The position numbers were made by a program, and so were the translations under genes. Positions 4,329 to 55,790 of a DNA stretch of 64,000 nt are shown in pieces. The DNA lies in assembly GCA_965649765.1 (NCBI GenBank), contig OZ287750.1:1550001-1614000 (forward strand), read 5' to 3'. Origin of the DNA: Bispira polyomma (taxonomy: Eukaryota). Numbering within the stretch: the stretch's first letter is position 1; every line of letters starts with the position of its first letter. Under the pieces are notes generated by a model. It was not told where the DNA came from and ran no database searches. It saw nothing but the letters and a program-made list of their open reading frames with translations.

Positions 4329-4600
4329 GGGGGCCGTGGTGGCCTAGTGGTTAGCAAGCATTGCGCTTCACAATCACTAGTCTCTCACCTCTGGGCGGTG
4401 TGAGTTTGACTCCCGTCAATGCCTATGTAGGAAAGGTGGTAGTTCCTTACTGTGGGCCGCTGGTTTTAGTGCAGAACCTTGATCAACTGTATGCAGTGTT
4501 TCCTCCAGCGTTTCCAAATACCCTCCCCAATATAACCTAAACAGGTACTAGAGTGGACGTTAAATATCCCAATTAAAAAAAAAATACAAAAAAAAAAAAA
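4329..4600 (+). mobile_element. tRNA-derived SINE, family A, A-rich tail
   Basis: A-box TGGCCTAGTGG, degenerate B-box gagtttgactcc; body near-identical to 31847-32100; possible imperfect TSD atta(t)gttgag. Confidence 0.9.
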
Positions 4601-5009
4601 CATTAGTTGAGCAGTTAAGTATCTGCCAAAAGTGATATTTAAAAAAGCTTTTTATTTAAATAATCAGAATTAAGTTTTCATAAATCTTTTCATAAGGCAA
4701 AAATAGTGAACAAATTTTTAAATGGTGTCAAAATGAATGCATCGTTATGGTCAAATCAGTGTCACTGTGAACATTCTGGCCAAATCTATGTCTACAAGCA
4801 GGAAATGGGTAATTCCGACTGTGATCTTGAGTTTTCAAGGCTCCGAATTAACTGAACATGTTAGGAGAGCAAGATTTTTGTTTGGGTAAATAATAAAAAG
4901 CTCATCAAAGGGAAAGGGCTTTGGTCTATAAAACGATTAAAGGAATGTCTTTTTGGGAGAGGTGGAGTATGAACAACTAAAATGGCCCTGTAGGTATTCA
5001 GAGATAAGC

Positions 5010-5088
5010 TACCACTGTGGCTCAGTGGGTAACTCAACTCCCTTTGGAACACTGTGCACCTGGGCTCAATCCCATCCTGGGGCAACTA
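5010..5088 (+). mobile_element. Isolated tRNA-like SINE head or tRNA pseudogene
   Basis: A-box TGGCTCAGTGG and B-box-like gggctcaatccc at tRNA spacing; shares ttggaacac with the minus-strand head at 39760-39813. Confidence 0.55.
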
Positions 5089-6027
5089 CATCAAGAGGAC
5101 AAACATTTAAATATTTTGTTAATTTTTTTTAATCATTTTAAATCTATTAAACACATTTTAAAAAGCTCTATGCAGTATGGATCTACCAGAAATGTTTATA
5201 GATGACACTAAAGACAATATTTGTTGAACTTATCACCGTGTTAAGTTGTTAACCTAATTACTACAAATTAGCTGACACAATAAGCCACAATATTTTACCT
5301 TCCTAAATCCAGTGATATTATTTAATCTCTTTAAAATTCTAGGGTTTTTTTTTAATTTTGAAAAGCAATATTCTATTATACCTATTTCCAAGTTTATTTT
5401 TTAAAAAGTGACGTCTTTTTATTAAAAAAGTTACTTTATGAACATTGTTAAGAAATATTTTTGACATTTTGTGTCATTTTATGACCACAGTGTGGTTGAA
5501 TGCTTGATATTAGAAGTTCTTTGCGTCTGTATAATCAATCCTAATTGAATTCATTTTCTACAAAAAGAAATTGATTTAAAATTAAATATCATGGCATCTG
5601 ATTGTCATATTATGTTGTGATATTAATCTAACAATGGTAACTCTGCGTGAGGGAGGTTTAATTCAAAGAATTTATCTCTGCAGCCATGGGGGGAATCTTG
5701 ATTTATTTGTAATTCTGTATTAAATGTCTAAATTACACTGAAATTAAATATCAAATGACAGAGTTCAGGAAGTGGGGCCTACTATGTTTTGTGTTTCCTT
5801 TCTTCCATCATTTTATGTTAATAACAGAGCTAATATTACACTGTATGACTCGGTCATATTAAAATCGCGACATTATAACTTATTTTTATCTAACACCCCT
5901 CCTACTCTCTTATAAGGTGACCTTATATGGTTTATAGTTCTGTACATTTGAGGCTATTTGTGCACAATCTTCTCTGGTCAGAGGTCAGAAGCTACTGCAA
6001 GTATCTCAATGGAAAGTAAAACCAACA

Positions 6028-11591: not shown

Positions 11592-11707
11592 AACCAAGCA
11601 ATGATCGCAGGATGAGCAGTGTCATGATGCCCGCTGACTCCACAACTAGAGATAAGCGCAGACGCAGGAGGGAGGAGAAACGTGCAAAACGGCCAAAGAA
11701 GGAACGG
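11592..11707 (+). CDS. CAAP1: Probable CAAP1 N-terminal coding exon (PSNDRRMSSVMMPADSTTRDKRRRRREEKRAKRPKKER; candidate ATG at 11612)
   Basis: Pyrimidine tract plus AG acceptor (ttttccccaccag) and GTCAGT donor at 11708. Open, purine-rich frame ending in phase 0, compatible with the exon at 37385. The basic RDKRRRR motif resembles the remembered vertebrate CAAP1 N-terminus (REKRRKRS). Linkage across 25.7 kb is inferred. Confidence 0.7.
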
Positions 11708-29759: not shown

Positions 29760-31790
29760 GTGTGGCTGTGTTAATCATTTTGTAATTAAGCGGGACGCTT
29801 GTTTGTATACAGCAGAAAATTCACGCGGAAGGGCCGGCTGCCACATTTTCTATTGGCTATAGCTCAGCAACCACTGGGTGGATTGTCTTCAAATTTGGCA
29901 CATGCAGTAGCCCTGGGAAAAAATTTCAATATTGTGTCATCACATTTCGACCAATCAGAGAAGTCACATAACTATAAACATAAACTTTCACTTCTATGCT
30001 GATGATACCCAACTGTATATCCACCTTACACCTGACTCTGCCAAGGCAGCTTTCACTTCCTTACAGAACTGCCTTGTTGATGTACAACACTGGATGGCAG
30101 CAAATAAACTCAAGCTGAACCCTGAGAAGACTGAGTTTATTTTGTTTGGCTCCAAGTTGCAACGGGAAAAATTGTCCTGTTGTTTTCCACTTGACATTCT
30201 TGGCAGCAGGTTTTCTCCAGCTGACAAAGTACGAAACCTGGGTGTGGTGTTCGACTCTGAATTCTCCTTCTCTAACCATGTCGCAGCGGTGTGTAGATCA
30301 TGTTTTGTTGGCCTCCGTGATTTCAGGCGGATTCGACGCTATCTTTCCAAATCCACTGCGATCACTGTTGCCAATGCTTTGGTCAGCAGCAGGCTTGATT
30401 ACTGCAACTCTCTGTTCCGTTCCTTATCTCGTAGTGATCTCAGACGCCTTCAGAATATCCAACACTCGTTGGCACGTATTGTGACCAAAACTTCTAAATT
30501 TTCCCACATTACTCCTGTACTGAAGTCACTGCACTGGCTCCCAATAAAATATCGTGTTGCTTTCAAAACAGCAACTATAAGATATAAATTTCTAAATTCT
30601 GGATTACCCACTTATTTTAGCCCCCATCTATCCAAATATACATGCTCAGTCAGGACAAGGCGCAGTAACTCTGATAAATTATACCTTAACATTCCCACTT
30701 TCGACCCTCGCATCCACAAATCCAAAGTTCAGTTCAATCACTGCCTAGCTCATGATGGCCCCCTCATTTGGAACAGCCTACCTGATCATGTTCGCCTGGC
30801 TCAAACTTTCTCCTCTTTCAGGAGTAAACTGAAGGCCTATCTTTTTGAACAGGCTTTTCCACCTTAGCCGTCGCAACCATTTACGGTAGTCTCCCTGGTT
30901 ACGACTTCCATCCGCCCACTATTTTTGATTTTCGATTAACGTTTTGGGTTTGTTGTGCCTTAGAATTTGTTGTACAAAGATTAAGCGCTATAAAAGTACG
31001 ACTAGATTAGATTAGATTAGATTATAAACAGGTTTTTTAAAGGGGTGTGCTTGTCCGGATGATAACTTAAAAAGCACTTTACCTATTTTCATGACATTTG
31101 GCAAGTAGGCTCCTTATATAAATGTCTGGACAGCATTAACTTTTGGAAGTGATCCGATACACAAATAGCGGACTTATTAACGATTAATTAAACGTTAACA
31201 TTTTTCGAAACGATGAAAATGAAAAATCCTTAATATCTTGGAAACAGTGCGAGATAGAGCGATTTCGGCTGAATTTTGGGCTCTGAAGGTATATGCAGTC
31301 ATCAGCAACTTTTCCAAAAATTTTAAATGATTTCAAATTCAAAAAAGAAAAGTTTATTTGTTTGTTTTTTTTTAATTTTTTGTAAAATATTTTTTTTTTT
31401 TTTTTTTTAAATTTTTTTTTATTTTGTTTAACCTCTCAAAAAATCGCTCTCTCGCCATTTTTGGCGGCCAACTTGAATTTCTGCAAAAAAAAAAAAAACG
31501 AGTTTTTCTCTAAATCGGTAACAGATAGAGCAATTTCGACCAAATTTTGACAAAGGGTGTGGTCGGGGCATTAACAGGGCTTAAACTCATTAGAACTTAT
31601 GAGATCTGATCAAAACTGGGCATATCCTGGGCATAAACGGGCATTAACATGGCATGAACAGGGGATGCAAATATATGCAAATATACATTTTTCCCCCATT
31701 CTCTCCCGACAAGCCAAGTTCTAATAATCAGGAGTAAACTGGTATAAATGTGGCGAGAACTTAGACAGTGTGACTGCCACATTACGTTGA
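29760..31790. mobile_element. Putative non-autonomous (HINE-like) element hosting the L2 copy
   Basis: Motifs ttcaaatttggcacat and repeated gagatagagc(g/a)atttcg(g/a)c, with a relative at ~13360-13400. Boundaries uncertain. Confidence 0.35.
29940..31024 (+). mobile_element. 5'-truncated L2-clade LINE with (GATTA)n tail
   Basis: Motifs FYADDTQLY, LKLNPEKTE, SRLDYCNS, LHWLP and AFPP* (stop 30867); stem-loop at 30955-30988; tail agattagattagattagatta. Confidence 0.95.
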
Positions 31791-31846
31791 TAGCCCCTTA
31801 ACAGAGTTCTACTTAGAGAGGGGATGTATGATCTTGGATATATATA

Positions 31847-32100
31847 GGGGCCGCAGTGGCCTAGTGGTTAGCAAGCATTGCGCTTCACAATCACTGGTCT
31901 CTCACCTCTGGGCGGCGTGAGTTCGAATCCCGTCGATGCCTATGTGGGAAAGGTGGTAGTTCCTTACTGTGGGCCGCTGCTTTCAGTGCAGAACCTTGAT
32001 CAACTGTATGCAGTGTTTCCTCCAGCGTTTCCAACTACCCGTCCCGATATAACCTAAACAGGTACTAGAGAGACGTTAAATATCCCAATTCAAATTCAAA
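31847..32100 (+). mobile_element. tRNA-derived SINE, family A, full length, (TTCAAA)n tail, 18-bp TSD
   Basis: A-box TGGCCTAGTGG, B-box AGTTCGAATCC; TSD tgatcttggatatatata at 31829-31846 and 32101-32118. Confidence 0.93.
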
Positions 32101-32557
32101 TGATCTTGGATATATATATGACATAAATAAATTCAAGTGAAAAATTAAATCTTTCTAATGACAAATATGGACAAGTTTGTAACTCTGAGATTTTGTTGAA
32201 GCTAATATTACCACGTATTACCTCCGTACATTAAAATGACAGTTAAAACTCTCCTACAGTCACAGACTATGTTTTTGGACTTCTCAGATTGTTTACTTGA
32301 TTCTGGGGGCTGTGTTTTACAAAATGCCTCACATCAATAAGGCACGTTAATAATATCAAATACAAGACAATATATTGTACACTAAAACACCAGTTGGTAA
32401 AATTACGACAATTAAAGACAAAGTTGGTGTTTTTTTGCTCCTTCATTACAGCATAGCTAGCTATGTCAATTGCCAAAACAATAATTCTATATCTTAACAA
32501 GTAAATAGATTTAAACTAAACTGTAAGAGTTAAAAATTACACAAAACAATACTTGTA

Positions 32558-33852: not shown

Positions 33853-34082
33853 GGACCTCAGTGGGACAGTCTTAACACACTCACCTCCCACCTCTAAGGT
33901 CACGGTTCTAAACTCGGCTGGGGCTTAAAAGTCGGAAAGTTGGTAGTTACATACCGATAATCGCTGGTTTCTAGTATAAAATTTTGACCAACTGGTATAC
34001 ACTGGTTTCCTCCAGCACTGAAACTGTACATAGTAATATGACCTATACAATGTGTTGGAGGCGCCATTAAACCAAAAATCCA
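33853..34082 (+). mobile_element. tRNA-derived SINE, family B (core related to family A), degenerate
   Basis: ggaaagttggtagtt...ttgaccaactggtatacactggtttcctcc...atatgacctatacaatgtgttg...ttaaac. Confidence 0.75.
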
Positions 34083-37384: not shown

Positions 37385-37564
37385 AAAAAGTCCGGCCGGT
37401 TTGCCATGCTGGAGGAAGCCAGTGAACACGAGAGTGACCTTGACCTGGATAAAGAGGTCAAACCCATCGGTGGCTATTGCATGGATCGTGAAGACATGGT
37501 CGAGCAGATGTTTCGTAGTATTAGTGGCAAGAAGCTGCGCGCCATGTTACCAAACATCCTCAAG
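37385..37564 (+). CDS. CAAP1: CAAP1 coding exon (KKSGRFAMLEEASEHESDLDLDKEVKPIGGYCMDREDMVEQMFRSISGKKLRAMLPNILK)
   Basis: Acceptor tttgtag, donor AAG|gtaggg; 180 nt, phase 0/0. The peptide matches the remembered CAAP1 core (LDLTVSLKPVSFYISDKKEMLQQCF..IGEKKLQKMLPDVLK). Confidence 0.9.
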
Positions 37565-38633: not shown

Positions 38634-38718
38634 GCCATACCTCTGGATGAGCTGAAGAAGCTGTGTGTGGAACAGGTGGAAATCATGTCCAGGAAGCGCA
38701 TCACGGGCATACTCAGCG
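38634..38718 (+). CDS. CAAP1: CAAP1 coding exon (AIPLDELKKLCVEQVEIMSRKRITGILS-G)
   Basis: Acceptor cactttag, donor G|gtaaga; 85 nt, phase 0/1. Continues the CAAP1 domain in frame (remembered human: SIEEIKKLCQEQLELLSEKKILKILEG). Too short for the ORF track. Confidence 0.9.
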
Positions 38719-38756
38719 GTAAGAACTGTGTATTTTGTAGTAAAAAAGAGGGCTGT

Positions 38757-39004: not shown

Positions 39005-39097
39005 TTACGATTGGATCAATGATTCTGCTGTTGCGCTTTAGAAGATGCCTAGCATCAATAAAGTGCATTAAAAATTCATAATAATGATAATAATAAT
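39005..39097 (+). mobile_element. Very short L2 3' terminus with (AAT)n tail
   Basis: Stem-loop tgcgctttagaagatgcctagcatcaataaagtgca followed by taataatgataataata. Confidence 0.65.
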
Positions 39098-39099
39098 AT

Positions 39100-39392
39100 G
39101 ATAGATTTTTAATACACCTAATTGATGCAAGGGACTGTCTAAAGCGCAACATCATCAACAAAATTGTTAAAATCATAGTCCGTTTCCAATGCAAATTTAT
39201 GATTGGTTGTACTAATGTGAACGAGTAAGATCTCTATGGAGGGTAAGCAAGGGTGAAGAGATGGGTCTTAAGGTTGCTTCTGAAACCAGAGAGGGTTTTA
39301 TGAGATCTTCTGTTGGCTGGTAAATTGTTCATTAGCTTTGGTGCTGCAACAGAGAAGGCATAGGATCCAATCCGTTGACTGGTTCTAGTATT
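39100..39392 (-). mobile_element. L2 3' fragment (ORF2 C-terminus plus 3' UTR)
   Basis: Reverse complement translates RTSQRIGSYAFSVAAPKLMNNLPANRRSHKTLSGFRSNLKTHLFTLAYPP* (stop 39234-39236). UTR relative at 55716-55790. Confidence 0.85.
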
Positions 39393-39739
39393 GGAGTTAA
39401 ATTACTTTAATAAACTGCCCTTTTTCAATAGTAAATCACCAGATATAGTCTTTTTTTTAAGTTAATGCGAAACTTAACTCTCAGTAATGCTTGGAGAATA
39501 TTTCTATTTTTATCCAAATATGGTCAAAGTCATGGAGATGATTTATTTATACTCACTTCTTGACTGCACACAGCCAACCAGCATTACCCAGCATCAGTTA
39601 ACTACTAATATCCCCCTAACTACAGAGAGAGAGGCTTTGGGTGACACTATTTATAACAACATCCCCAAGGATCTTTACCCTGCCACACTGGCGATAGGAC
39701 ACAATGGCCAACGTTATAAGTGGTCATACAATCTACTAT

Positions 39740-39820
39740 GTATCTGCCTGCTCATCCTCGGATTGAACCCAGTTCCTCTGTGTTCCCAAGTGGTTGTCTT
39801 ATCCACTATGCCATAGTGTG
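39740..39820 (-). mobile_element. tRNA-like SINE head terminating the 39-bp array
   Basis: Minus strand: A-box TGGCATAGTGG (39803-39813), 33 nt, then B-box GGTTCAATCC (39760-39769). Confidence 0.7.
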
Positions 39821-41176
39821 AGGGAGGTAGGTGTATCTTATCCACTATGCCATAGTGTGAGGGAGGTAGGTGTATCTCATCCACTATGCCATAGTGTGAG
39901 GGAGGTAGGTGTATCTCATCCACTATGCCATAGTGTGAGGGAGGTAGGTGTATCTCATCCACTATGCCATAGTGTGAGGGAGGTAGGTGTATCTCATCCA
40001 CTATGCCATAGTGTGAGGGAGGTAGGTGTATCTCATCCACTATGCCATAGTGTGAGGGAGGTAGGTGTATCTCATCCACTATGCCATAGTGTGAGGGAGG
40101 TAGGTGTATCTCATCCACTATGCCATAGTGTGAGGGAGATAGGTGTATCTTATCCACTATGCCATAGTGTGAGGGAGGTAGGTGTATCTCATCCACTATG
40201 CCATAGTGTGAGGGAGGTAGGTGTATCTCATCCACTATGCCATAGTGTGAGGGAGGTAGGTGTATCTCATCCACTATGCCATAGTGTGAGGGAGGTAGGT
40301 GTATCTCATCCACTATGCCATAGTGTGAGGGAGGTAGGTGTATCTCATCCACTATGCCATAGTGTGAGGGAGGTAGGTGTATCTCATCCACTATGCCATA
40401 GTGTGAGGGAGGTAGGTGTATCTCATCCACTATGCCATAGTGTGAGGGAGATAGGTGTATCTTATCCACTATGCCATAGTGTGAGGGAGGTAGGTGTATC
40501 TTATCCACTATGCCATAGTGTGAGGGAGGTAGGTGTATCTTATCCACTATGCCATAGTGTGAGGGAGGTAGGTGTATCTTATCCACTATGCCATAGTGTG
40601 AGGGAGGTAGGTGTATCTCATCCACTATGCCATAGTGTGAGGGAGGTAGGTGTATCTCATCCACTATGCCATAGTGTGAGGGAGGTAGGTGTATCTCATC
40701 CACTATGCCATAGTGTGAGGGAGGTAGGTGTATCTCATCCACTATGCCATAGTGTGAGGGAGGTAGGTGTATCTCATCCACTATGCCATAGTGTGAGGGA
40801 GGTAGGTGTATCTCATCCACTATGCCATAGTGTGAGGGAGGTAGGTGTATCTTATCCACTATGCCATAGTGTGAGGGAGGGAGGTGTATCTCATCCACTA
40901 TGCCATAGTGTCAGGGAGGTAGGTGTATCTCATCCACTATGCCATAGTGTCAGGGAGGTAGGTGTATCAGGGAGGTTGGTGTATCTCATCCACTATGGCA
41001 TAGTGTCAGGGAGGTAGGTGTATCAGGGAGGTAGGTGTATCTCATCCACTATGGCATAGTGTCAGGGAGGTAGGTGTATCTCATCCACTATGCCATAGTG
41101 TCAGGGAAGTAGGTGTATCAGGGAAGTAGGTGTATCTCATCCACTATGAAATAGTGTCAGGGAGGTAGGTGTATCA
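39797..41176. repeat. 39-bp minisatellite, ~35 highly homogeneous copies, each with a palindrome and a minus-strand A-box
   Basis: Unit tccactatgccatagtgtgagggaggtaggtgtatctca contains CACTATG-C-CATAGTG; explains the 13-aa repeat ORFs. Confidence 0.97.
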
Positions 41177-41260
41177 CTGACTTACTTAGTGGTGAGAATT
41201 AGATAACACACATCCAACAGACAGCTATTCATTGTGTGATCAATGACAAATATTTTGTCT

Positions 41261-41415
41261 GAAGAATAAGGAATCTAACATTCGCCACTGTATCTGAAAT
41301 TCGATCCCTATAAAATTGAGACAAATCAATTAAAACTGACCAAAAAATAGCTGGAATTTAGGTAAGGCAAAAAAGTCGCAAAAGTCTCCATTTCAGCAAA
41401 TATTACCCACAATTC
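41261..41415. mobile_element. Partial copy of the MITE at 42816-43001
   Basis: Shared aatcta..attcgccact, caaatcaattaaaactg and atttcagcaaatattacccacaatt. Confidence 0.75.
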
Positions 41416-42815
41416 TACCAAAAACACAACATTTTCTAGGTGGCATATTTGCGATGCAAAGGGCAAAGTTTTATAATCACAATGGATTCTTTTTTAGTCC
41501 ATTTCACAGACATTGAATAAAAACTGGTAAAATTTTACAGGCAGTCATTGATGTATCTGGTTTTCACAGCCCAGTAATATCAGTTTATTCAGAAATAGTA
41601 AACCCTTCCAAGGACAGGTGAAAAAAAACGATGGGAGAAAAAACATTGGTTAGATTATGTTTTACAAACATTTACAAAGTAAACATTTCCTATTTGACCA
41701 GCTTTTGTGATATAAATTAATGCAGATATCTTTAGTTGTGTTTATGTGCAATTGTTGGTCTATTGATAAGACTGTTTGATTGTGAGGTCTATATATAGAT
41801 ATCTAGTAAGGGACAGTGCATGCTTGAATTTAACATGGAAGAAAACATTTCAAAAATGATTTGGTTTTTGAGGAATTTCTTTATATATTATTCAAATGCT
41901 ATAACTTGGGAGTTGTGTTTACTGTTCACCTGTATATTCCTATTAAGGCAAAAGTAGGGAGTAATTTATGAAAGTATTTCATTTTTTCTTTGTGTTTTTA
42001 CAATATCTCCTCGAGACCATTTCTGTGGCTGTCATATATGAATAATAAAGAACATGTGGATTTTATTGCTTTATTTTATGACGAGACACTTTTTTTCAGT
42101 CATTTTTTCCCTACTTTACTGAAAAGATTTAAGACTCACAAGTTAAGATTGCTAACTCTATTCTTATGGCCGGAGAGAGACTGGTATTTGTTGTAATTTT
42201 AATAAACCAGCTGGAATTTTCTCACCTGAAAAGCTTATTGATTTTGCGAATCTCGTTTTTCCCCCTTTTGTTATAAGCAAAGTCCAGGAATTTATTGAAG
42301 TGCATGTCTAAATTACATATTGAGAAAAGGACAGCTTTTCAGTAAAAATAATCGATTTGAGTTTGATAAATAAGGGGCTTAGGAATTGTAGGGCGGCTGT
42401 TTTTGTTTTCTATGTGGTTGATTTGTTGTTTTTATCGTGTTGTTAAATCTTCATCCTGAACAAGGTATAGACTTTTGATTGACGTCTTTTGTCTCCTAGC
42501 AACAAACTCCGCACAGATGAGTTTCAAATAAAGTGGTATTGAAATTTTAATGTGGCTTTTCTCCATTGGTTATAGAGGATGAAATTAAAAATTTATATTT
42601 TTAGTAACGGATCAGGGTAAAATAAAATCAAAAATAGGTATAGGGCTCCAGGCTTGTTTTGTGGTGTGTGTATATGAGGTCACAATACAGATAAATACAC
42701 TCAAATTATGATGATTTGCTCCCCATGATGGTGTATACACATGCTTTTTAAAAACTGCAATGAGATGCGTGTTAAGTAACTTCTCCTGAACTAAGTTATC
42801 TACATTTCTCAAGCT

Positions 42816-43001
42816 AGAGTAGGTAATCTAAAATTCGCCACTTTATCTCAAATTTGCCACCCCTAAAATTTAAACCAAATCAATTAAAACTGGCAAAAAA
42901 TCCCTCGAATTTGGGTAAGTAAGCTAAAATCTCAATTTCAGCAAATATTACCCACAATTTCGAATTTCAGACACATTGGCGAATTTTAGATTCCTTTCTC
43001 T
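42816..43001. mobile_element. MITE with ~40-bp TIRs, superfamily unassigned
   Basis: agagtaggtaatctaaaattcgcca ... tggcgaattttagattcctttctct. Confidence 0.8.
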
Positions 43002-44254
43002 TCATAGACAATGTCACATCAAAAATTGTTTAGAAACAAAAAATTTAAGCCAAAAATATATGTTTAGTTTTTAATAGAAGTGTTTTTTTTTCAGCTGTTT
43101 TAAGTATATAAAACAGCCGAGAAATAGAAAATAAAAAAAAAAAAAAAATAAATAAAATGAGATTCAAATATTTAAGCTTGAGTTTTAAAGTCAGTTATAT
43201 TATGACTTGGCTGTTGTGTTTTTGTGCATGGGTTGCATTTTCTGTTCAATTAATTTAGAAGCAAGTTGCCCGGCTTTGAGCTGCTTTCAAGCCGTGGTCC
43301 GGCCCTACATCCCTTTTAAGGACACTGATCTCCCCCAAAACACCCCCCCCCCTTCTGCCCCCACCCCCTCCCTTGTTTGAAAAGCAGCATTAAGCTTCCA
43401 CGTGGCCAGCCTTTGTCATACACGGAAAGCTTGAACCCAGTTCACCCCACCTTTTGTGTCCCACCGCTGGACCGCATCTATTCACTCAAATCTCACTCAT
43501 CTTTGATTTCTGCGACTTCATTGAAAATTCCTACAATTTTTGGATTCATCCCCGATTTTCTGATCTAATTAGGCTTAAGTTCTCGGTGGGCTTTTTAGGG
43601 TCATTTTGTTGTTTGTTTTTATCAGGGTATTCTCACTGAAATAAAAAACAAAAACTCATTTCTATGGGTACGTCCTTGGTATATCAGCCGGTTACTCAGT
43701 CAGCCAGTTCACATTAACTTATTATTAGACTGCTGATTGTGAATTAGGCATTCAGTTGTGTACAGGGCTGCACTGCTTGTGTGGTTGGGGGATTTTAGTT
43801 TTTGGCTTGATATATAAAAAAGCCAATGAATATTTACAGTCAATGACAGTTGCACGCCATTATAACACTGTATACATGTAACATGGGCCCTCTCTTTATA
43901 AGTATAACATTCCAAATGCATATTGATCCGTTGAAGCAGTAAAAAAATGTTAATGTTCAAAAGTACTCTGAGCTCCCATATTTTCTAGTTGGGTATGATT
44001 AGTTGAATGGAATAAAACAATTTGCCTTTGATATATTTGAAGGTAGAGGGACTCCTTATAATCAGAGTACAGCAGATTGAGAGGGGGGCGGGCAGTGGAC
44101 ACCCGTTTGTAAATCTCAGCCTTAAACGTATGACAAATGATCGTCAAATAATCTTATTTCTGTTTTATAATAAAAGGTATAATAAATCTCAATTATTATA
44201 TCAGTCAAACTGTGCAACAAACTGGCAAAATATCTGGGAGTAAATCTGATGTAT

Positions 44255-44421
44255 CCCACCTTCAGGGTCCTGGTTCGAATCTCGACCGGGGCTTTAAGTA
44301 GGAAAGTTGGCAGTTAACTTGGCAGTGTAGAATCTTGACCAACTGGTATACACTGGTTTTCCCGTGTGATATGACCTCATACAATGTGTTGAAAACAACG
44401 TCAACCCCAAAATAAACAAAA
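44255..44421 (+). mobile_element. SINE family B, 5'-truncated and internally deleted
   Basis: B-box ggttcgaatct; core ttgaccaactggtatacactggttt identical to the copy at 33853. Confidence 0.75.
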
Positions 44422-44613
44422 GGAATGTCAGCTGGAGTAATAGTCTTTAAGACTGGTTTTCTATGCGAACATATTCTAACTCCTGCTGATGTCCACAATG
44501 TTTCTAATAAATACTGGATTATCTTTGTACAAATGGACACTTGTATTCTATTTACAATTGAGCTTTCTTATTTTCCAGTAGTTCTGTACATTTACTGTTA
44601 CAAACTTATTTTA

Positions 44614-45770
44614 TAGTGGTTAAAGGTGACTGCTTCACAATCCCTGGCCTCTCACCAATGTGTGTGTTGTGGGGGCCAAAGTGGCCTCGTGGTTAGAAGT
44701 GACTGCGTCACAATCACTGGCCTCTCACCAGTGTGTGTGTTGTGGGGGCCATAGTGACCTAGTGGTTAGAGGTGACTGCCTCACAATCACTGGCCTCTCA
44801 CCAGTGTGTGTGTTGTGTGGGCCATAGTGGCCTAGTGGTTACAAGTGTTAGCTTCACAATCACTGGCCTCTCACCAGTGTGTGTGTTGTGGGGGCCATAG
44901 TGGCCTAGTGGTTAGAAGTGACTGCTTCACAATCACTGGCCTCTCACCAATGTGTGTGTTGTGGGGGCCATAGTGGCCTAGTGGTTAGAGGTGACTGCTT
45001 CACAATCCCTGGCCTCTCCCCAATGTGTGTGTTGTGTGGACCATAGTGGCCTACTGGTTAGAAGTGTTAGCTTCACAATCACTGGCCTCTCCCCAATGTG
45101 TGTGTTGTGGGGGCCAAAGTGGCCTAGTGGCTAGAAGTGCCAGCTTCACAATCCCTGGCCTCTCACCAATATGTGTGTTGTGGTGGCCATAGTGGCCTAG
45201 TGGTTACAAGTGTTAGCTTCACAATCCCTGGCCTCTCACCAATGTGTGTGTTGTGGGGGCCATAGTGGCCTAGTGGCTAGAGGTGACTGCTTCACAATCA
45301 CTGGCCTCTCACCAGTGTGTGTGTTGTGGGGGCCATAGTGGCCTAGTGGTTACAAGTGTTAGCTTCACAATCAATGGCCTCTCACCAATGTGTGTGTTGT
45401 GGGGGCCATAGTGTCCTAGTGGTTAGAGGTGACTGCTTCACAATCACTGGTCTCTCACCAATGTGTGTCTTGTGGGGGCCATAGTGGCCTACTGGTTAGA
45501 AGTGCCAGCTTCACAATCACTGACCTCTCACCAATGTGTGTGTTGTGGGGGCCATAGTGGCCTAGTGGTTAGAGGTGACTGCTTCACAATCACTGGTCTC
45601 TCACCAATGTGTGTGTTGTGGGGGCCATAGTGGCCTAGTGGTTAGAGGTGACTGCTTCATAATCAATGGCCTCTCACCAATGTGTGTGTTGTGGGGGCAT
45701 AGTGGCCTAGTGGTTAGAAGTGACTGCTCCACAATCACTGGTCTCTCACCAATGTGGGTTCAAACCCTGT
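44614..45770 (+). repeat. 73-bp SINE-head-derived satellite, ~16 copies, ending in a complete A+B head
   Basis: Unit gggggccatagtggcctagtggttagaggtgactgcttcacaatcactggcctctcaccaatgtgtgtgttgt, homologous to the SINE A 5' end; B-box ggttcaaacc only at 45757-45766. Confidence 0.95.
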
Positions 45771-48700
45771 TAGTTCAGGGAGTTGACTGCCAAAGTTTGT
45801 CCTGGCTAAGCATTCCTTAGGCGTCAGTAGGTGTACAACTACTTAAAGGGAGTTCACTGTGTACTTTGAGTGATTGAAGTCTTGTCTGCTATAGAAATGT
45901 TTCAATTATCATGATGTTAAGTCATGATTCTGTTAGATTGAGTCCGATTAGAGTTTATTTATTGATCAGAAACTCGGATTCATAACAGTATTTATAAACA
46001 TGAACATATTGTTTGGTCTCTCAGAAGTTAATGTCTTTGTTATCCTTTTTGTAAGTTCTAATATACATATGAAACACAGATGACTAGGGGATAGTTTAAA
46101 AAGTCTGGGATTAGGAAATTAAAGGGCAAATTAATGCGGGCTCAGTTGCTTGGCATGACAGAATTCATCACATGGACTTACATGTAGTCCTGATATTGAA
46201 CCCCCCCCCACACACCCCCTCTTTGTGATAGATACACATTGTATGTTAAAGATTCTTTTGCAAACCAGTTCATTTGTAAAGGGAAAAAACCCAACAATTT
46301 GTGGATAAAAAAAGATGTCAAAAAACCATCCCCAAGCTGTGGTTGAAGTGAAAGTTTTGAAATGAGATGTCATGGAACTGTGAGGGTTTATAACATTGTC
46401 TCAGGTGGATATCAAAGCCAGATCTAATGCAATTAATGACAGGTGGAGCCAGGTGGAAATTTTAACACCTGAGCTCCAAATAATATGACAACAAAAAACA
46501 AACCAAAAACCCGGCAGTAGTAAAGCACTCATTAAAAACATTCATAAATGATTATGAAATGGGTTACTCCCCCCCACCCCACCCCTCCTCCATGACTGTC
46601 TTATTTTTTTGAAGATTCTAAATCAATAGGGCCGGATGAAATTCATAGATTGTAATGATGGGTTTCTTGTTGAATTATAATGATTGCGTTGAATTATTGT
46701 TACTACTTTTTTTTGTGTGTGTGGAGGGGGGGGGGGGTGCAGTGTGTGTGTGCTCGGACTGTAGTGTCCCCTTCAGGTTTTTTCTGCCCCCCCCCCCATA
46801 TTGATATTGACTCTCTATCATGGGGAATCATTTCTCTCTGTCAATATTGAGGGAGGACGAGGGCTCCGCAAATACAACCCACCACACAGTTGAAATTTTC
46901 ACTTTAATGTATTCCTGAGCAAAGCTATTCATTCTGGATGAAATGCCAAATAAGTACATAGTAACGATTGATTTTCACAAATACACACATACACACATAT
47001 AGGCGGCACAGCGGATTTAGTAGCAAAACGACTGCGGTGTCCGTTTGACCTTTAGGTCGTGTAATGTTTGAATATTATCATAAATTCAACTGGAACACAC
47101 CAAAAAACGGGGTTAATCTATGTGGCATTTACATGATAGTTCTGTGTTAACCATGAGAAGACTGGGGTGGTTCAACTTTAGGGGTTCTATATTGATTTCT
47201 TTAAGCTTGTCGGGGGGTGGGGGGGGTGCAGAGATATATTATTATGGAGCCTAAAAACTTTGAGAGAAAAAAGCGGAGAGACCAAAACAAAAAACAGGAA
47301 AAGGAAAAAAACCCAAACAACTCTGGATAAATTGCATGATTTCAAATCTCAAAATGGCCCTCCTTGTTATGAATATATATGGCATAATTATGACCCCTCG
47401 GAGCATTTTTCATTTAAAATTCATATTGGCTCGTAAGGAATGGGTGCGGGTGGCAAGGCCAATATCCATCAAAAGCTGGTATTGAGCCCTGTAAAAAAGC
47501 TGGGGGTCATAATGGGACTTTTTAGATGAGCGCTGGCCATACATCAACCACCCAAACCCTTTTAATCTCTGGACCTTACAAAGTGCCTCTTTTTAAATTG
47601 CCCAAACACAACTCCTCCCCCCCCCCCTTCCAAAATGGCCTCCCAGTCAAAATGTCTTCATCTGGGGGTTTTTATCCTCTCCTTTTTATTTCTCAGTTTT
47701 AATGAATTGCATATTTTGTATTATCTATTCACTAGAGGGAATTTTGTAATATTATCTTTTTTGTAAAAATTTCCTTTTAGAGAGGGAACATTCTTTTTGT
47801 AGTAATGTTATATCAATGTAAAAACTAGTGTCTGCAAATTTTTGAAAAAACAACTGGCCAAGAGTGTTGTTTAATTAATTTTAATATCTGTCAGTTTTGA
47901 TGAATCGTTCGTTCCAAGGGTGAAGTAGTCTCGCTTTTATTCAACTACAACATGACTTAATTAAAACTTAGTGAAACATAACATGTCATCTTCATTGATC
48001 AAACAAGGGAACGAATCCACTCCCAGAAAATAGATTACTTTATCCATTTAACAATTAATCACAAAAGTTTGATGGCTGTAATTAATTTAAAAGGAAGCCA
48101 GTTAGTTTTAATAAGCTGTGGTAGGGTGATTCTGTTATATGTTGAAAAAGAAAATTGTTTAGAAAAAAACTCACCATAATTGAGCATGCTTTGTTTTAGG
48201 TTTTCAAATATAAAATAAGTTGATATATTTTTTTCCTAGGACTGAATGGGTTTTTGTCCACACTGAGTAATGTTGCCTCTGAAAGCTACCCTTGAATTTG
48301 TCGAGTGAAGGTTCAACATAAAATGATAAATTATGTTTAGAAAACACTTACCAGTTAAAGGCTGCAAGGGGCCTTAATTAATGTTCAGAGAATAATAAAA
48401 AAAATAGTAGTAAACATAACGATAATAAATCAAAAATAAGGATTATCCAATAAAATCGTAACAAATAAAACCTAACATGTTAGGGATGTGAGCTTTTTGT
48501 TTGGATAATAGAAGGTTCAGAAAATAGAAGAGCTATTTTAAATACAAAACCAATAGGAAATCTCTGAATTTGGGAAAGTCAAACTGAGTTTATCAAGAGT
48601 ATATATTTTGATAACAGAAAGTTTGTATAATAGAAGTATCAACTATATGATTGAAATAATATGTACATTATGGGGACTTTATTTTCATCTTAACAATTCA

Positions 48701-55031: not shown

Positions 55032-55715
55032 AACTAGACATCTGCTGGAATGAACTAAAGGACTTTAGTCTTAAGTTAGTCTGAAGCTTAATGTTGATGT
55101 GTCTGAAGTATGGTAAGGACTGTCTTACTGGTAGTCCAAGTGTTCTGTGTAAAGTTAGCACTAAACAAAGATCTTTTGTTTAGTTTATTTGATTCATATA
55201 ATCGTATATACAATTACAAGCATCATTGTAATACAGTTTAATAACAAACTAAACATTACATTCAAATAAAAATTACGATTAAATTAAAATGAAAAAACAA
55301 CAAAATAACTGTTCAGTGTGTAGACTCAGAATTAATAATCAGTTTTATCTGATCTCTATTAAACATTACATCATTCATTGGCTCTTTTAGATTTAACATA
55401 TCAGCTTAATGTCACTGGGGGATTTAAGATTAAAATCTTAACATTTGACGATAAAATCAAAGACCAAAATCTTTAGCTAAAGAATAAGTAAAGACCAAGA
55501 GGATTTTGTGAATACGGCTCTTGTGACACTGGAGCTCTTCTATGTGTGTACAATACAGTAGGAGTCTGTGTAACTAGGATAGAAGTGGAATTCTTCTAGA
55601 ACTAGAATTAATTCTCTGCTCCTACATTCACACATACTCATTTTACAGTAGGTCTAAGTAGAAGTTTTTGTTAAGTAGAACCAAATGGGGTGGATATGAT
55701 AGATCTTTCACCTCC

Positions 55716-55790
55716 CTAATTGATGCCAGGCATCTTCTTAAGCGCAGCATCATCGACAAAGTTGTAAAAATCATAGATATATCCGACTTT
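55716..55790 (-). mobile_element. L2 3'-UTR fragment
   Basis: ctaattgatgc...aagcgcagcatcatcgacaaagttgtaaaaatcatag matches 39118-39178. Confidence 0.65.

Follow-up and report, generated by a model that had tools for sequence, protein, structure and literature searches.

The two minisatellites described here are runs of a linker plus the 5' part of a SINE, each ending in one head that has both an A-box and a B-box. We believe, with a probability of roughly 80%, that each arose by local duplication across the 5' junction of a SINE and then by neutral expansion. Both lie in the 64-kb stretch of DNA that we analyzed as a whole (the window), and the positions of all features are given in Table 1. 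This architecture is already published for human Alu (in parts of PMC3389668) and for gecko SINEs (in parts of PMC10702118), and the arrays are further examples of it. They are likely to be ordinary repeat expansions and not Pol III start ladders. Neutral expansion had been the default of the initial annotation, and we keep it because of the anatomy of the units, A-boxes that are not protected from change, and other duplications of the same head.

Table 1. Repeats, SINE copies and exons in the 64-kb window.
Feature	Position	Strand	Details
Second full copy, SINE family of array 2 head	4331..4578	plus	93% identical to the copy at 31847
Decayed relative of array 1 head	5002..5091	plus	
CAAP1-like gene, probable first coding exon (weak)	11627..11707	plus	donor and phase fit
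Full-length reference SINE, head family of array 2	31828..32118	plus	19-bp target-site duplication, 31828-31846 and 32100-32118
CAAP1-like exon, 180 bp	37385..37564	plus	Pfam PF15335, E 0.0024, under the curated cut-off
CAAP1-like exon, 85 bp	38634..38718	plus	no later exon found ahead of the arrays; GT donor at 38719
Terminal decayed tRNA-derived head, array 1	39738..39820	minus	box A 39813-39803, box B 39768-39760
39-bp minisatellite (array 1)	39797..41175	minus	34 full units and, at the outer end, three 17-bp flank-only pieces
5'-truncated SINE, third family	44247..44425	plus	box B at 44273, no box A; relative at 33883-34016
73-bp minisatellite (array 2)	44613..45757	plus	50-bp first unit and 15 units (14 of 73 bp, the last of 72 bp)
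Terminal decayed SINE head, array 2	45694..45776	plus	box A 45703-45713, box B 45758-45766
Sequence behind array 2 head	45777..45960	plus	single-copy depth at 80% likeness

TRF on the window reported 39797-41119 with a period of 39, 34.1 copies and 94% matches, and 44614-45756 with a period of 73, 15.7 copies and 90% matches. Together with a box scan, this agrees with the earlier description of a 39-bp array on the minus strand and a 73-bp array on the plus strand, each leading into one A+B head, with 34 units in the first and 15 plus a cut one in the second. The two had also been called unrelated in sequence, divergent and 3.4 kb apart, and they are: the consensus units align best over the 11-nt A-box alone (10/11 identical), the arrays point away from each other, and the distance between them is 3,437 bp. 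Mean pairwise identity is 0.97 among the 39-bp units, where the outer units are more diverged and a distal block of them shares a variant pattern, and 0.91 among the 73-bp units, four of the 15 having a three-base variant in common. We saw no higher-order repeat in the 73-bp array, since identity is flat at 0.90-0.92 over lags 1-7. Long open frames of 398 and 416 aa span the 39-bp array, but a period divisible by three produces them and we did not count them as genes.

On sequence comparison, each unit is a short linker joined to the 5' part of a decayed tRNA-derived SINE. The 39-bp unit has about 15 bp of upstream flank and about 24 bp of SINE head including box A, with the start of the head set from comparison with the copy at 5002-5091. 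The 73-bp unit has a linker of about 8 bp and about 65 bp of SINE head, which runs from the 5' end up to just short of box B. The linker of array 1 also stands before the outermost unit, where it is identical to the linker of later units, while the first unit of array 2 is cut inside box A and sits directly on AT-rich flank. Both arrays have at least four head-to-tail units, a unit shorter than the SINE and a longer terminal unit that runs through box B, and can thus be classed as SINE-derived minisatellites.

Intact A-boxes (TRGCNNARYGG) are present in 31 of the 34 39-bp units and in 10 of the 15 73-bp units, so the claim that the arrays are built of A-box units is right for most of their length but not for all of it, as the three 17-bp pieces have no A-box. 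There is one B-box match per array, at the head end (39768 on the minus strand, 45758 on the plus strand), and none inside either array, which is the downstream-only placement that had been described. Both B-boxes keep their consensus match. Each locus had been said to end in a single complete tRNA-like head, and of this we can keep the single A+B head but not its completeness: ARAGORN found 0 tRNA genes in the window, tRNA accounted for 0 of its 20 Rfam matches (up to E=5), and neither terminal head gives a cloverleaf fold. One A-box and one B-box per terminal head, at the tRNA-like spacing of 34 bp (array 1) or 44 bp (array 2), is what type 2 Pol III promoters such as tRNA genes and extra-TFIIIC sites have, as described in parts of PMC11724288. 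Unlike the tRNA genes of that source, these loci lack a tRNA fold, their stems are decayed, and nearly all of their upstream A-boxes are out of range.

The heads have relatives elsewhere in the window. That of array 1 is 77% identical to the copy at 5013-5072 over 60 bp, and the likeness to the 5002-5091 copy extends about 20 bp beyond box B; this is the one other match in the window for the 39-bp unit plus head. The head of array 2 and the full copy at 31855 are 85% identical over 52 bp. This head belongs to a very high-copy family, with 5,434-5,574 contigs per run aligning to this region and a summed depth over the head of 4e5-1e6, against 49 on single-copy DNA (run X1). The likeness to this family reaches 45776, and the alignment of the locus to the 31847 copy breaks down past the head. 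By alignment and depth, the sequence behind the head is probably not the body of the high-copy family; it may be decayed or belong to a rarer family. None of the three SINE copies at 31828, 4331 and 5002 has an array upstream. Neither array locus gave a target-site duplication above shuffles, while the control SINE copy gave 15/15 (0/60 shuffles); we rejected a decayed candidate for the array 1 element (9/12 matches) because 46/60 shuffles equalled it. We could not assign a named superfamily: in a comparison aimed at the conserved central domains of the bivalve SINE superfamilies (Meta, V, MD, CORE, Deu), three exact 12-15 nt motifs had no match in 8 supplementary files of PMC11481361, among which the consensus file may not be included. 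A SINE-head pattern had 0 matches in metagenomes, and a shorter pattern had 12, of which 11 were chance-like and one resembled a lone SINE remnant with no array.

We propose that the seed would have been a local duplication spanning the 5' junction of a SINE, with a piece that included box A and stopped before box B. This first duplication would have happened at the DNA level, by slippage on short microhomology or, as has been suggested for Alu, by nick repair at the insertion junction, and later growth would have come from slippage, unequal crossing-over or unequal exchange, or gene conversion. The arrays would have no Pol III role. A series of A-boxes followed by an A+B head would then need no separate mechanism because box B falls outside the duplicated piece. 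Polarity toward the B-box would be automatic, and therefore a polarity test cannot discriminate between the readings. The divergent orientation would come from two unrelated insertions, each in its own orientation.

In favor of local duplication and neutral expansion are units made of SINE head and linker, heads with dispersed relatives that have no arrays, flank-only 17-bp pieces, and the same linker ahead of the first array 1 unit. The window holds 17 minisatellite arrays, and the 15 others are unrelated to SINE heads, so the genome makes arrays readily. Some observations fit this account less well. Two A-box-only arrays among 17, against 0.044 expected from uniform placement, is an excess of about 45-fold (P ~0.001, for a window chosen after the fact), which chance explains poorly without post-hoc selection or a bias toward 5' junctions; such a bias in the seeding of arrays may be real. 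The two ends of array 1 share just 2 bp of exact microhomology, and a single simple duplication does not give the 50-bp cut head of array 2. Both B-boxes are consensus-like, and one upstream A-box, the second of array 1, is inside the natural range at 73 bp from box B.

Other copies of the array 2 head have been duplicated as well. We found eight distinct go-back joints of this family in contigs of the same organism, with different lengths and linkers, and the differing linkers suggest locus-specific origins at these other loci. Three of the duplications hold box B and five hold box A only, compared with about 47% box-A-only joints expected from geometry (P 0.30), for a query that was the head family and to which duplications of the SINE body are invisible. 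The initial annotation had considered a recurrent mechanism that specifically amplifies SINE heads. It is recurrent, judging from these joints and from 136 human loci where a full Alu has tandem repeats of a partial one at its 5' end (Ahmed and Liang 2012, PMC3389668, in part), but specificity for the head or for box A did not emerge.

Several of the joints lead from head position ~55-65 back to the head 5' end through short, differing linkers. Such joints bear on an alternative seed for array 2, also followed by neutral expansion at the DNA level, in which a reverse transcriptase ends one SINE RNA, adds linker bases, jumps to a second head and stops early, leaving a cut head joined through a linker to a full one. 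Template jumping is a property of non-LTR reverse transcriptases. The opening of array 2, with its head cut inside box A and lying on AT-rich flank, is what such a jump would leave, although a later deletion would also explain the cut unit and the contig joints could be SINEs inserted in SINEs. No target-site duplication was found to bracket either locus, and the linker of array 1 precedes the outermost unit and is duplicated alone, as genomic flank would be. We consider a seed from retrotransposition improbable. In favor of local duplication and neutral expansion, the commonest loose ends at the head 5' end (713 contigs, two rows, run X1) enter unrelated, poorly agreeing AT-rich flank.

The arrays had also been suggested to act as Pol III start ladders or boundary elements, with box B anchoring TFIIIC and the A-boxes serving as alternative starts or as a copy-number-tuned boundary inside CAAP1. 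The material for this is present: B-boxes that match the consensus, mostly intact A-boxes, no T4 terminator inside either array, a pair of A-box-only arrays that exceeds the uniform null, and the existence of TFIIIC sites without Pol III (PMC11724288, in part). However, the A-boxes are not protected from change. Variable columns make up 3/11 in box A versus 22/62 outside it (Fisher P 0.74), and 2/11 versus 5/28 (P 1.0), in a comparison with few variable sites and little power. The gaps from A-box to B-box are 34, 73, 112... bp by rung in array 1 and 44, 116, 189... bp in array 2, so that rung 2 of array 1 is the only upstream A-box within the 31-93 bp that separate box A from box B in yeast tRNA genes (PMC11724288, in part). 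All told, 2/34 and 1/15 A-boxes are inside this range, and 32/34 and 14/15 are more than 93 bp from the sole B-box.

According to the same source, in the parts used here, binding of TFIIIC is governed by box B, with nanomolar affinity for box B and micromolar affinity for box A, and in yeast tRNA-His a nearby pseudo-A-box yields less than 10% longer transcript and is no substitute for the real A-box (PMC11724288). That pseudo-A-box is a weaker match to the consensus than the A-boxes of these arrays. Longer A-B spacings are known, such as the ~200 bp of yeast U6, and would bring a few more rungs into reach. Additional A-boxes bring no further B-box, since there is one per locus as in any SINE copy, and the heads are decayed. 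We therefore set aside use by Pol III as very unlikely. We would be similarly surprised by a combined version, in which a head-specific hotspot at SINE 5' junctions (a reverse-transcriptase jump or a junction nick) seeds A-box minisatellites and the nearest extra A-boxes (rung 2 of array 1, at 73 bp) provide alternative starts for Pol III or prolong TFIIIC residence, with repeat number tuning a Pol III/TFIIIC site in a CAAP1-like gene. If a functional reading were true, this would be a copy-number-tuned Pol III promoter, of which we found no description in the literature searched.

Palindromes that overlap box A could form hairpins that stall replication, making SINE 5' ends preferred seeds for arrays that are neutral but non-randomly placed. 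The 39-bp unit does have a perfect inverted repeat with 7-bp arms over box A, which 4.5% of 200 random windows reach, and only 1.5% of 200 random windows, not GC-matched, fold as well as the 73-bp unit. Against this, the fold energy of the 39-bp unit is unremarkable (14.5%), the two-unit fold of the 73-bp repeat has a z of -1.84, and the z of -5.66 for the 39-bp dimer is inflated because the dimer contains the palindrome twice. The best-folding tenth holds just 5/17 arrays, with a median percentile of 0.29. We give hairpins hardly any weight for these two arrays, and with unusually good folds in 5/17 arrays we rejected a hairpin-driven origin as a general rule.

The copy numbers are as assembled. 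The chance that the arrays are assembly artefacts is negligible, as the units share variant patterns (the three-base variant in 4/15 and the distal 39-bp block) and contigs of both samples agree from 45742 onward with zero differences.

Both arrays are probably within one long intron of a CAAP1-like gene. Among the 150 homologues listed of 164, the 180-bp exon is matched by 149, one of them named CAAP1-like, the 85-bp exon by 60 (best E 7e-8), and the weak first exon by 17 (best E 0.066). The named CAAP1 homologues among the matches listed are hemichordate proteins with 54-59% identity. A shared CAAP1 intron had been taken as given. A single intron is probable, reasoned from three exons that end at the donor at 38719 and from a profile search of the window, in which the segments that come next in CAAP1 homologues had no match and a control profile recovered its known exon at E 1.8e-14.

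Like the arrays here, the Alu loci have a 5' SINE piece tandemly repeated beside a longer copy, and for their origin a nick or recombination at the endonuclease site by the 5' end has been proposed (PMC3389668, in part). The Alu units differ in being 7SL-derived with a mean of 88.6 bp, and the wider unexplained class has mostly two units, whereas ours are tRNA-derived units of 39 and 73 bp in 34 and 15 copies, with old bodies and no detectable target-site duplication. The parts of the Alu paper used here do not discuss boxes A or B. Squamate SINE-derived satellites (sSat) also share features with our arrays: their units are shorter than the SINE, one longer terminal unit continues along the SINE, the unit differs among short loci, and sSat3Gja2 of Gekko japonicus joins a SINE 5' part to ~30 nt whose origin is unknown (Vassetzky et al. 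2023, PMC10702118, in part). As far as that text goes, sSat units are 70-290 nt, the major sSats are multi-locus families with a subtelomeric bias, and the dominant snake unit has box B and not box A. In contrast, our arrays are probably intronic, each unit is at one locus of the window, and one unit is just 39 bp.

In a bivalve survey, introns were reported to hold tandem arrays made from SINEs, with as many as 15 units, and unequal recombination was proposed. These resemble ours in being SINE-derived, invertebrate and intronic (probably so here), but there each unit retains 150 bp or more of SINE, with target-site duplications between the units or truncation at both ends. Shorter arrays would have escaped that survey, as its authors note, and our head-only units are below the cut-off. 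Local duplication of a SINE followed by expansion is also the model for minisatellite origin of Haber and Louis (1998) and, for Alu minisatellites, of Jurka and Gentles (2006), as relayed in parts of PMC3389668 and PMC6947457. The form of it that relies on short flanking repeats differs from what we see, as there is no exact 5-10 bp flanking repeat here (2 bp in array 1, and a cut outer end in array 2).

These arrays add two invertebrate cases in which minisatellites were seeded by the 5' end of a SINE. The human study, in the parts used here, left the mechanism of the first duplication unexplained (PMC3389668), and a genome in which one head has thousands of copies and has been duplicated independently several times is a test bed for how seeds form: a linker that matches the flank would mean DNA slippage, and a linker unlike the flank would mean a reverse-transcriptase jump. 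Length-polymorphic markers are another possible use of the arrays. Between them, about 190 bp ahead of array 2, lies a SINE that belongs to a third family.

Both arrays are real, and they are further examples of SINE-derived minisatellites, a type that is already known. Each ends in a single head, the 5' part of a tRNA-derived SINE with box A and box B. Split by hand, array 1 (39-bp units, minus strand) spans 41173 down to 39797 and comprises 34 full units and three 17-bp pieces of flank sequence alone, and array 2 (73-bp units, plus strand) is a 50-bp cut unit, with its head truncated within box A, followed by 15 units. The spacer between them is 3,437 bp. There is exactly one B-box match per array, at the inner, head-side end (39768 minus, 45758 plus), and a motif scan found none inside either repeat tract, just as the initial annotation had described. 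It was also right that the two units are unrelated in sequence beyond the A-box, where they agree at 10 of 11 bases. The overall architecture stood as well, with two corrections. Not every unit has an intact A-box, since the strict motif TRGCNNARYGG is present in 31/34 units of array 1 and 10/15 of array 2, and the heads do not fold like a tRNA: no cloverleaf was found in the predicted folds of the terminal heads, ARAGORN reported no tRNA genes in the window, and there was no tRNA among 20 Rfam matches up to E=5. Two adjacent outer 39-bp units (41078-41001, minus) have a flipped central base in the 15-bp palindrome lying over box A; a local inversion via template switching would produce this, and so, just as well, would a simple substitution.

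A full SINE copy at 31847, flanked by a 19-bp target-site duplication, shares 85% identity over 52 bp with the head of the 73-bp unit, and a second similar copy lies at 4331. These two copies set the 5' end of the SINE, so the 73-bp unit consists of about 8 bp of linker (its short non-head part) and about 65 bp of head, stopping just short of box B. The 39-bp unit has about 15 bp of flank and 24 bp of head. Its head matches only one other copy, a decayed one at 5002-5091 (77% over 60 bp), and the likeness runs beyond box B. Neither terminal element showed a target-site duplication better than shuffled sequence (control copy, 15/15). We obtained no SINE family name from 8 supplementary files of PMC11481361, which perhaps do not include the consensus file.

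Similar arrays have been described elsewhere. Ahmed and Liang (PMC3389668) reported 136 human cases of a partial Alu tandemly repeated at the 5' end of a complete Alu, for which they proposed nicking at the insertion junction as the cause. In SINE-derived satellites a longer terminal unit is the common form, and one gecko satellite variant joins the 5' part of a SINE to some 30 nt whose origin is unknown (Vassetzky et al., PMC10702118). Bivalves have SINE arrays in introns, with short units stated as missed (PMC11481361), and reviews give further cases (PMC9659126, PMC6947457). What these arrays add is a testable question, namely what gives rise to the initial duplication at the 5' end of a SINE.

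We put the probability at roughly 80% that a local duplication arose across the 5' junction of an old SINE copy and that the resulting dimer grew via slippage and unequal exchange. Such a history of growth by duplication is in keeping with variants that recur in non-adjacent 73-bp units and with the greater divergence of the outer block in the 39-bp array. The first duplication step and the neutrality of the arrays we infer.

To look at the head family elsewhere, we aligned contigs from three DNA sequencing runs, which cover two samples of one study and are possibly the assembly source, to 45685-47400; 5,434-5,574 contigs per run matched. The head family of array 2 is very abundant: summed depth over the head was 4e5-1e6, against 49 on single-copy DNA in X1, one of these runs, although summed contig depth does not equal copy number. 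The commonest loose ends at the head 5' end (713 contigs in X1 among the matches listed) enter unrelated AT-rich flank, so an array-free head is the norm. Sequence beyond 45776 has single-copy depth, and thus the SINE copy of array 2 is old or has a rarer body. A joint at 46590-46787 skips 196 bp in contigs of all three runs, with a side of only 21 letters, and may reflect either a deletion allele or a related repeat at another site.

Recurrent duplication of SINE 5' heads, as previously proposed, is supported by at least eight distinct go-back joints within the family at other loci among those listed (see table), a count that leaves out one 40-letter internal insertion and to which body or tail duplications are invisible because the query matches the family by its head alone. 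Their lengths and linkers vary and their X1 depth is 1-2.5 times that of single-copy DNA, suggesting low-copy events that arose independently; a contig joint may also be a nested insertion. Box A alone is contained in five of the joints, box B alone in two and both boxes in one; 5/8 does not exceed the 47% that the geometry of the window unit sizes predicts (P 0.30).

The window has 17 arrays with units of at least 22 bp and 5 recognisable A-box heads. Under uniform placement 0.044 A-only arrays are expected, giving P ~0.001 for the two observed in a window selected because it shows them. This excess counts against a plain neutral-duplication reading. Chance would produce such a pair in about one window per thousand, and the data agree equally well with a real bias towards SINE 5' junctions. 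Minisatellite density is high across the window, with 15 more arrays (units 22-74 bp) unrelated to SINE heads.

The truncated start of array 2 is not the product of one simple duplication. A later deletion would yield it, and so would a seed formed during retrotransposition by a reverse-transcriptase jump, which we consider an unlikely origin.

We think it quite improbable that the arrays serve as a Pol III or TFIIIC element, and we found no open-licence literature on such arrays as A-box ladders or on tests for Pol III starts. When the duplicated piece holds box A and ends before box B, A-boxes followed by a single A+B head necessarily result, so the polarity test first suggested cannot separate function from neutrality. 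Box A columns vary as often as the others (3/11 vs 22/62, P 0.74, in the 73-bp unit; 2/11 vs 5/28, P 1.0, in the 39-bp unit), in comparisons of low power. The A-box to box B gaps are 34, 73, 112... bp in array 1 and 44, 116, 189... bp in array 2, which leaves only 2/34 and 1/15 A-boxes within the 31-93 bp of yeast tRNA genes (PMC11724288). The flank-only pieces also multiplied without an A-box, so the expansion process does not require it. According to the same source, box B is bound with nanomolar and box A with micromolar affinity; a pseudo-A-box adjoining the real one gave <10% longer transcript and did not substitute for it. That pseudo-box matches less well than the A-boxes here, so the second A-box from box B in array 1, at 73 bp, could still be a Pol III element.

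Hairpin-driven seeding would draw on the short palindromes found over box A in each unit, but just 5/17 window arrays fall in the best-folding tenth, so folding is no general property of them. We regard this origin as very improbable. The arrays are almost certainly not an artefact.

Coordinates of arrays, contig joints, exons and retrotransposon fragments (positions within the window)
Feature	Position	Strand	Detail
Array 1	39797-41119	-	Tandem Repeats Finder, period 39 bp, 34.1 copies in the assembly sequence
Array 2	44614-45756	+	Tandem Repeats Finder, period 73 bp, 15.7 copies in the assembly sequence
Go-back joints, set 1	45738>45703, 45745>45701, 45755>45694, 45757>45702		contigs
Go-back joints, set 2	45760>45702, 45762>45733, 45768>45701, 45768>45716		contigs
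Array unrelated to heads	2088		65 bp x10
Array unrelated to heads	12572		33/22-bp GC-rich mosaic
Array unrelated to heads	23452		74 bp x6
Probable first exon, CAAP1-like gene	11627-11707
CAAP1-like exon	37385-37564		149 of the 150 homologues listed; Pfam PF15335 E 0.0024
CAAP1-like exon	38634-38718		60 of the 150 homologues listed
Non-LTR retrotransposon ORF2 fragment	29911-30867	+	Pfam RVT_1 E 2e-9
Non-LTR retrotransposon ORF2 fragment, C-terminal-end-like	39234-39401	-

Judging from the exon and profile matches, both arrays are probably within a single long intron of a CAAP1-like gene; one homologue among the 150 listed carries that name. The homologues extend past the last exon found with two conserved segments, and profiles of these had no match in the window while a control profile regained a known exon (E 1.8e-14), so the next exon is probably beyond the window. 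If the weakly supported first exon is genuine, intron 1 measures about 25.7 kb (11708-37384) and intron 3 >25 kb.

The LINE represented by the ORF2 fragments is a possible partner of the SINEs. In the spacer, two repeat copies (41255-41414 and 42816-43011; 78% over 153 bp, inverted terminal match) resemble a small element of the MITE type. At 39026-39154, about 300 bp downstream of the last CAAP1-like exon, two converging LINE-like 3' tails form a 58-bp inverted repeat (79% complementary), and a related tail lies at 55694-55776. In mammals, tail-to-tail LINE2 pairs are a source of microRNAs. A MIR8706 Rfam match at 39026-39154 is far below threshold, and the RNA is predicted to form a long hairpin (z -6.4 vs 200 shuffles).
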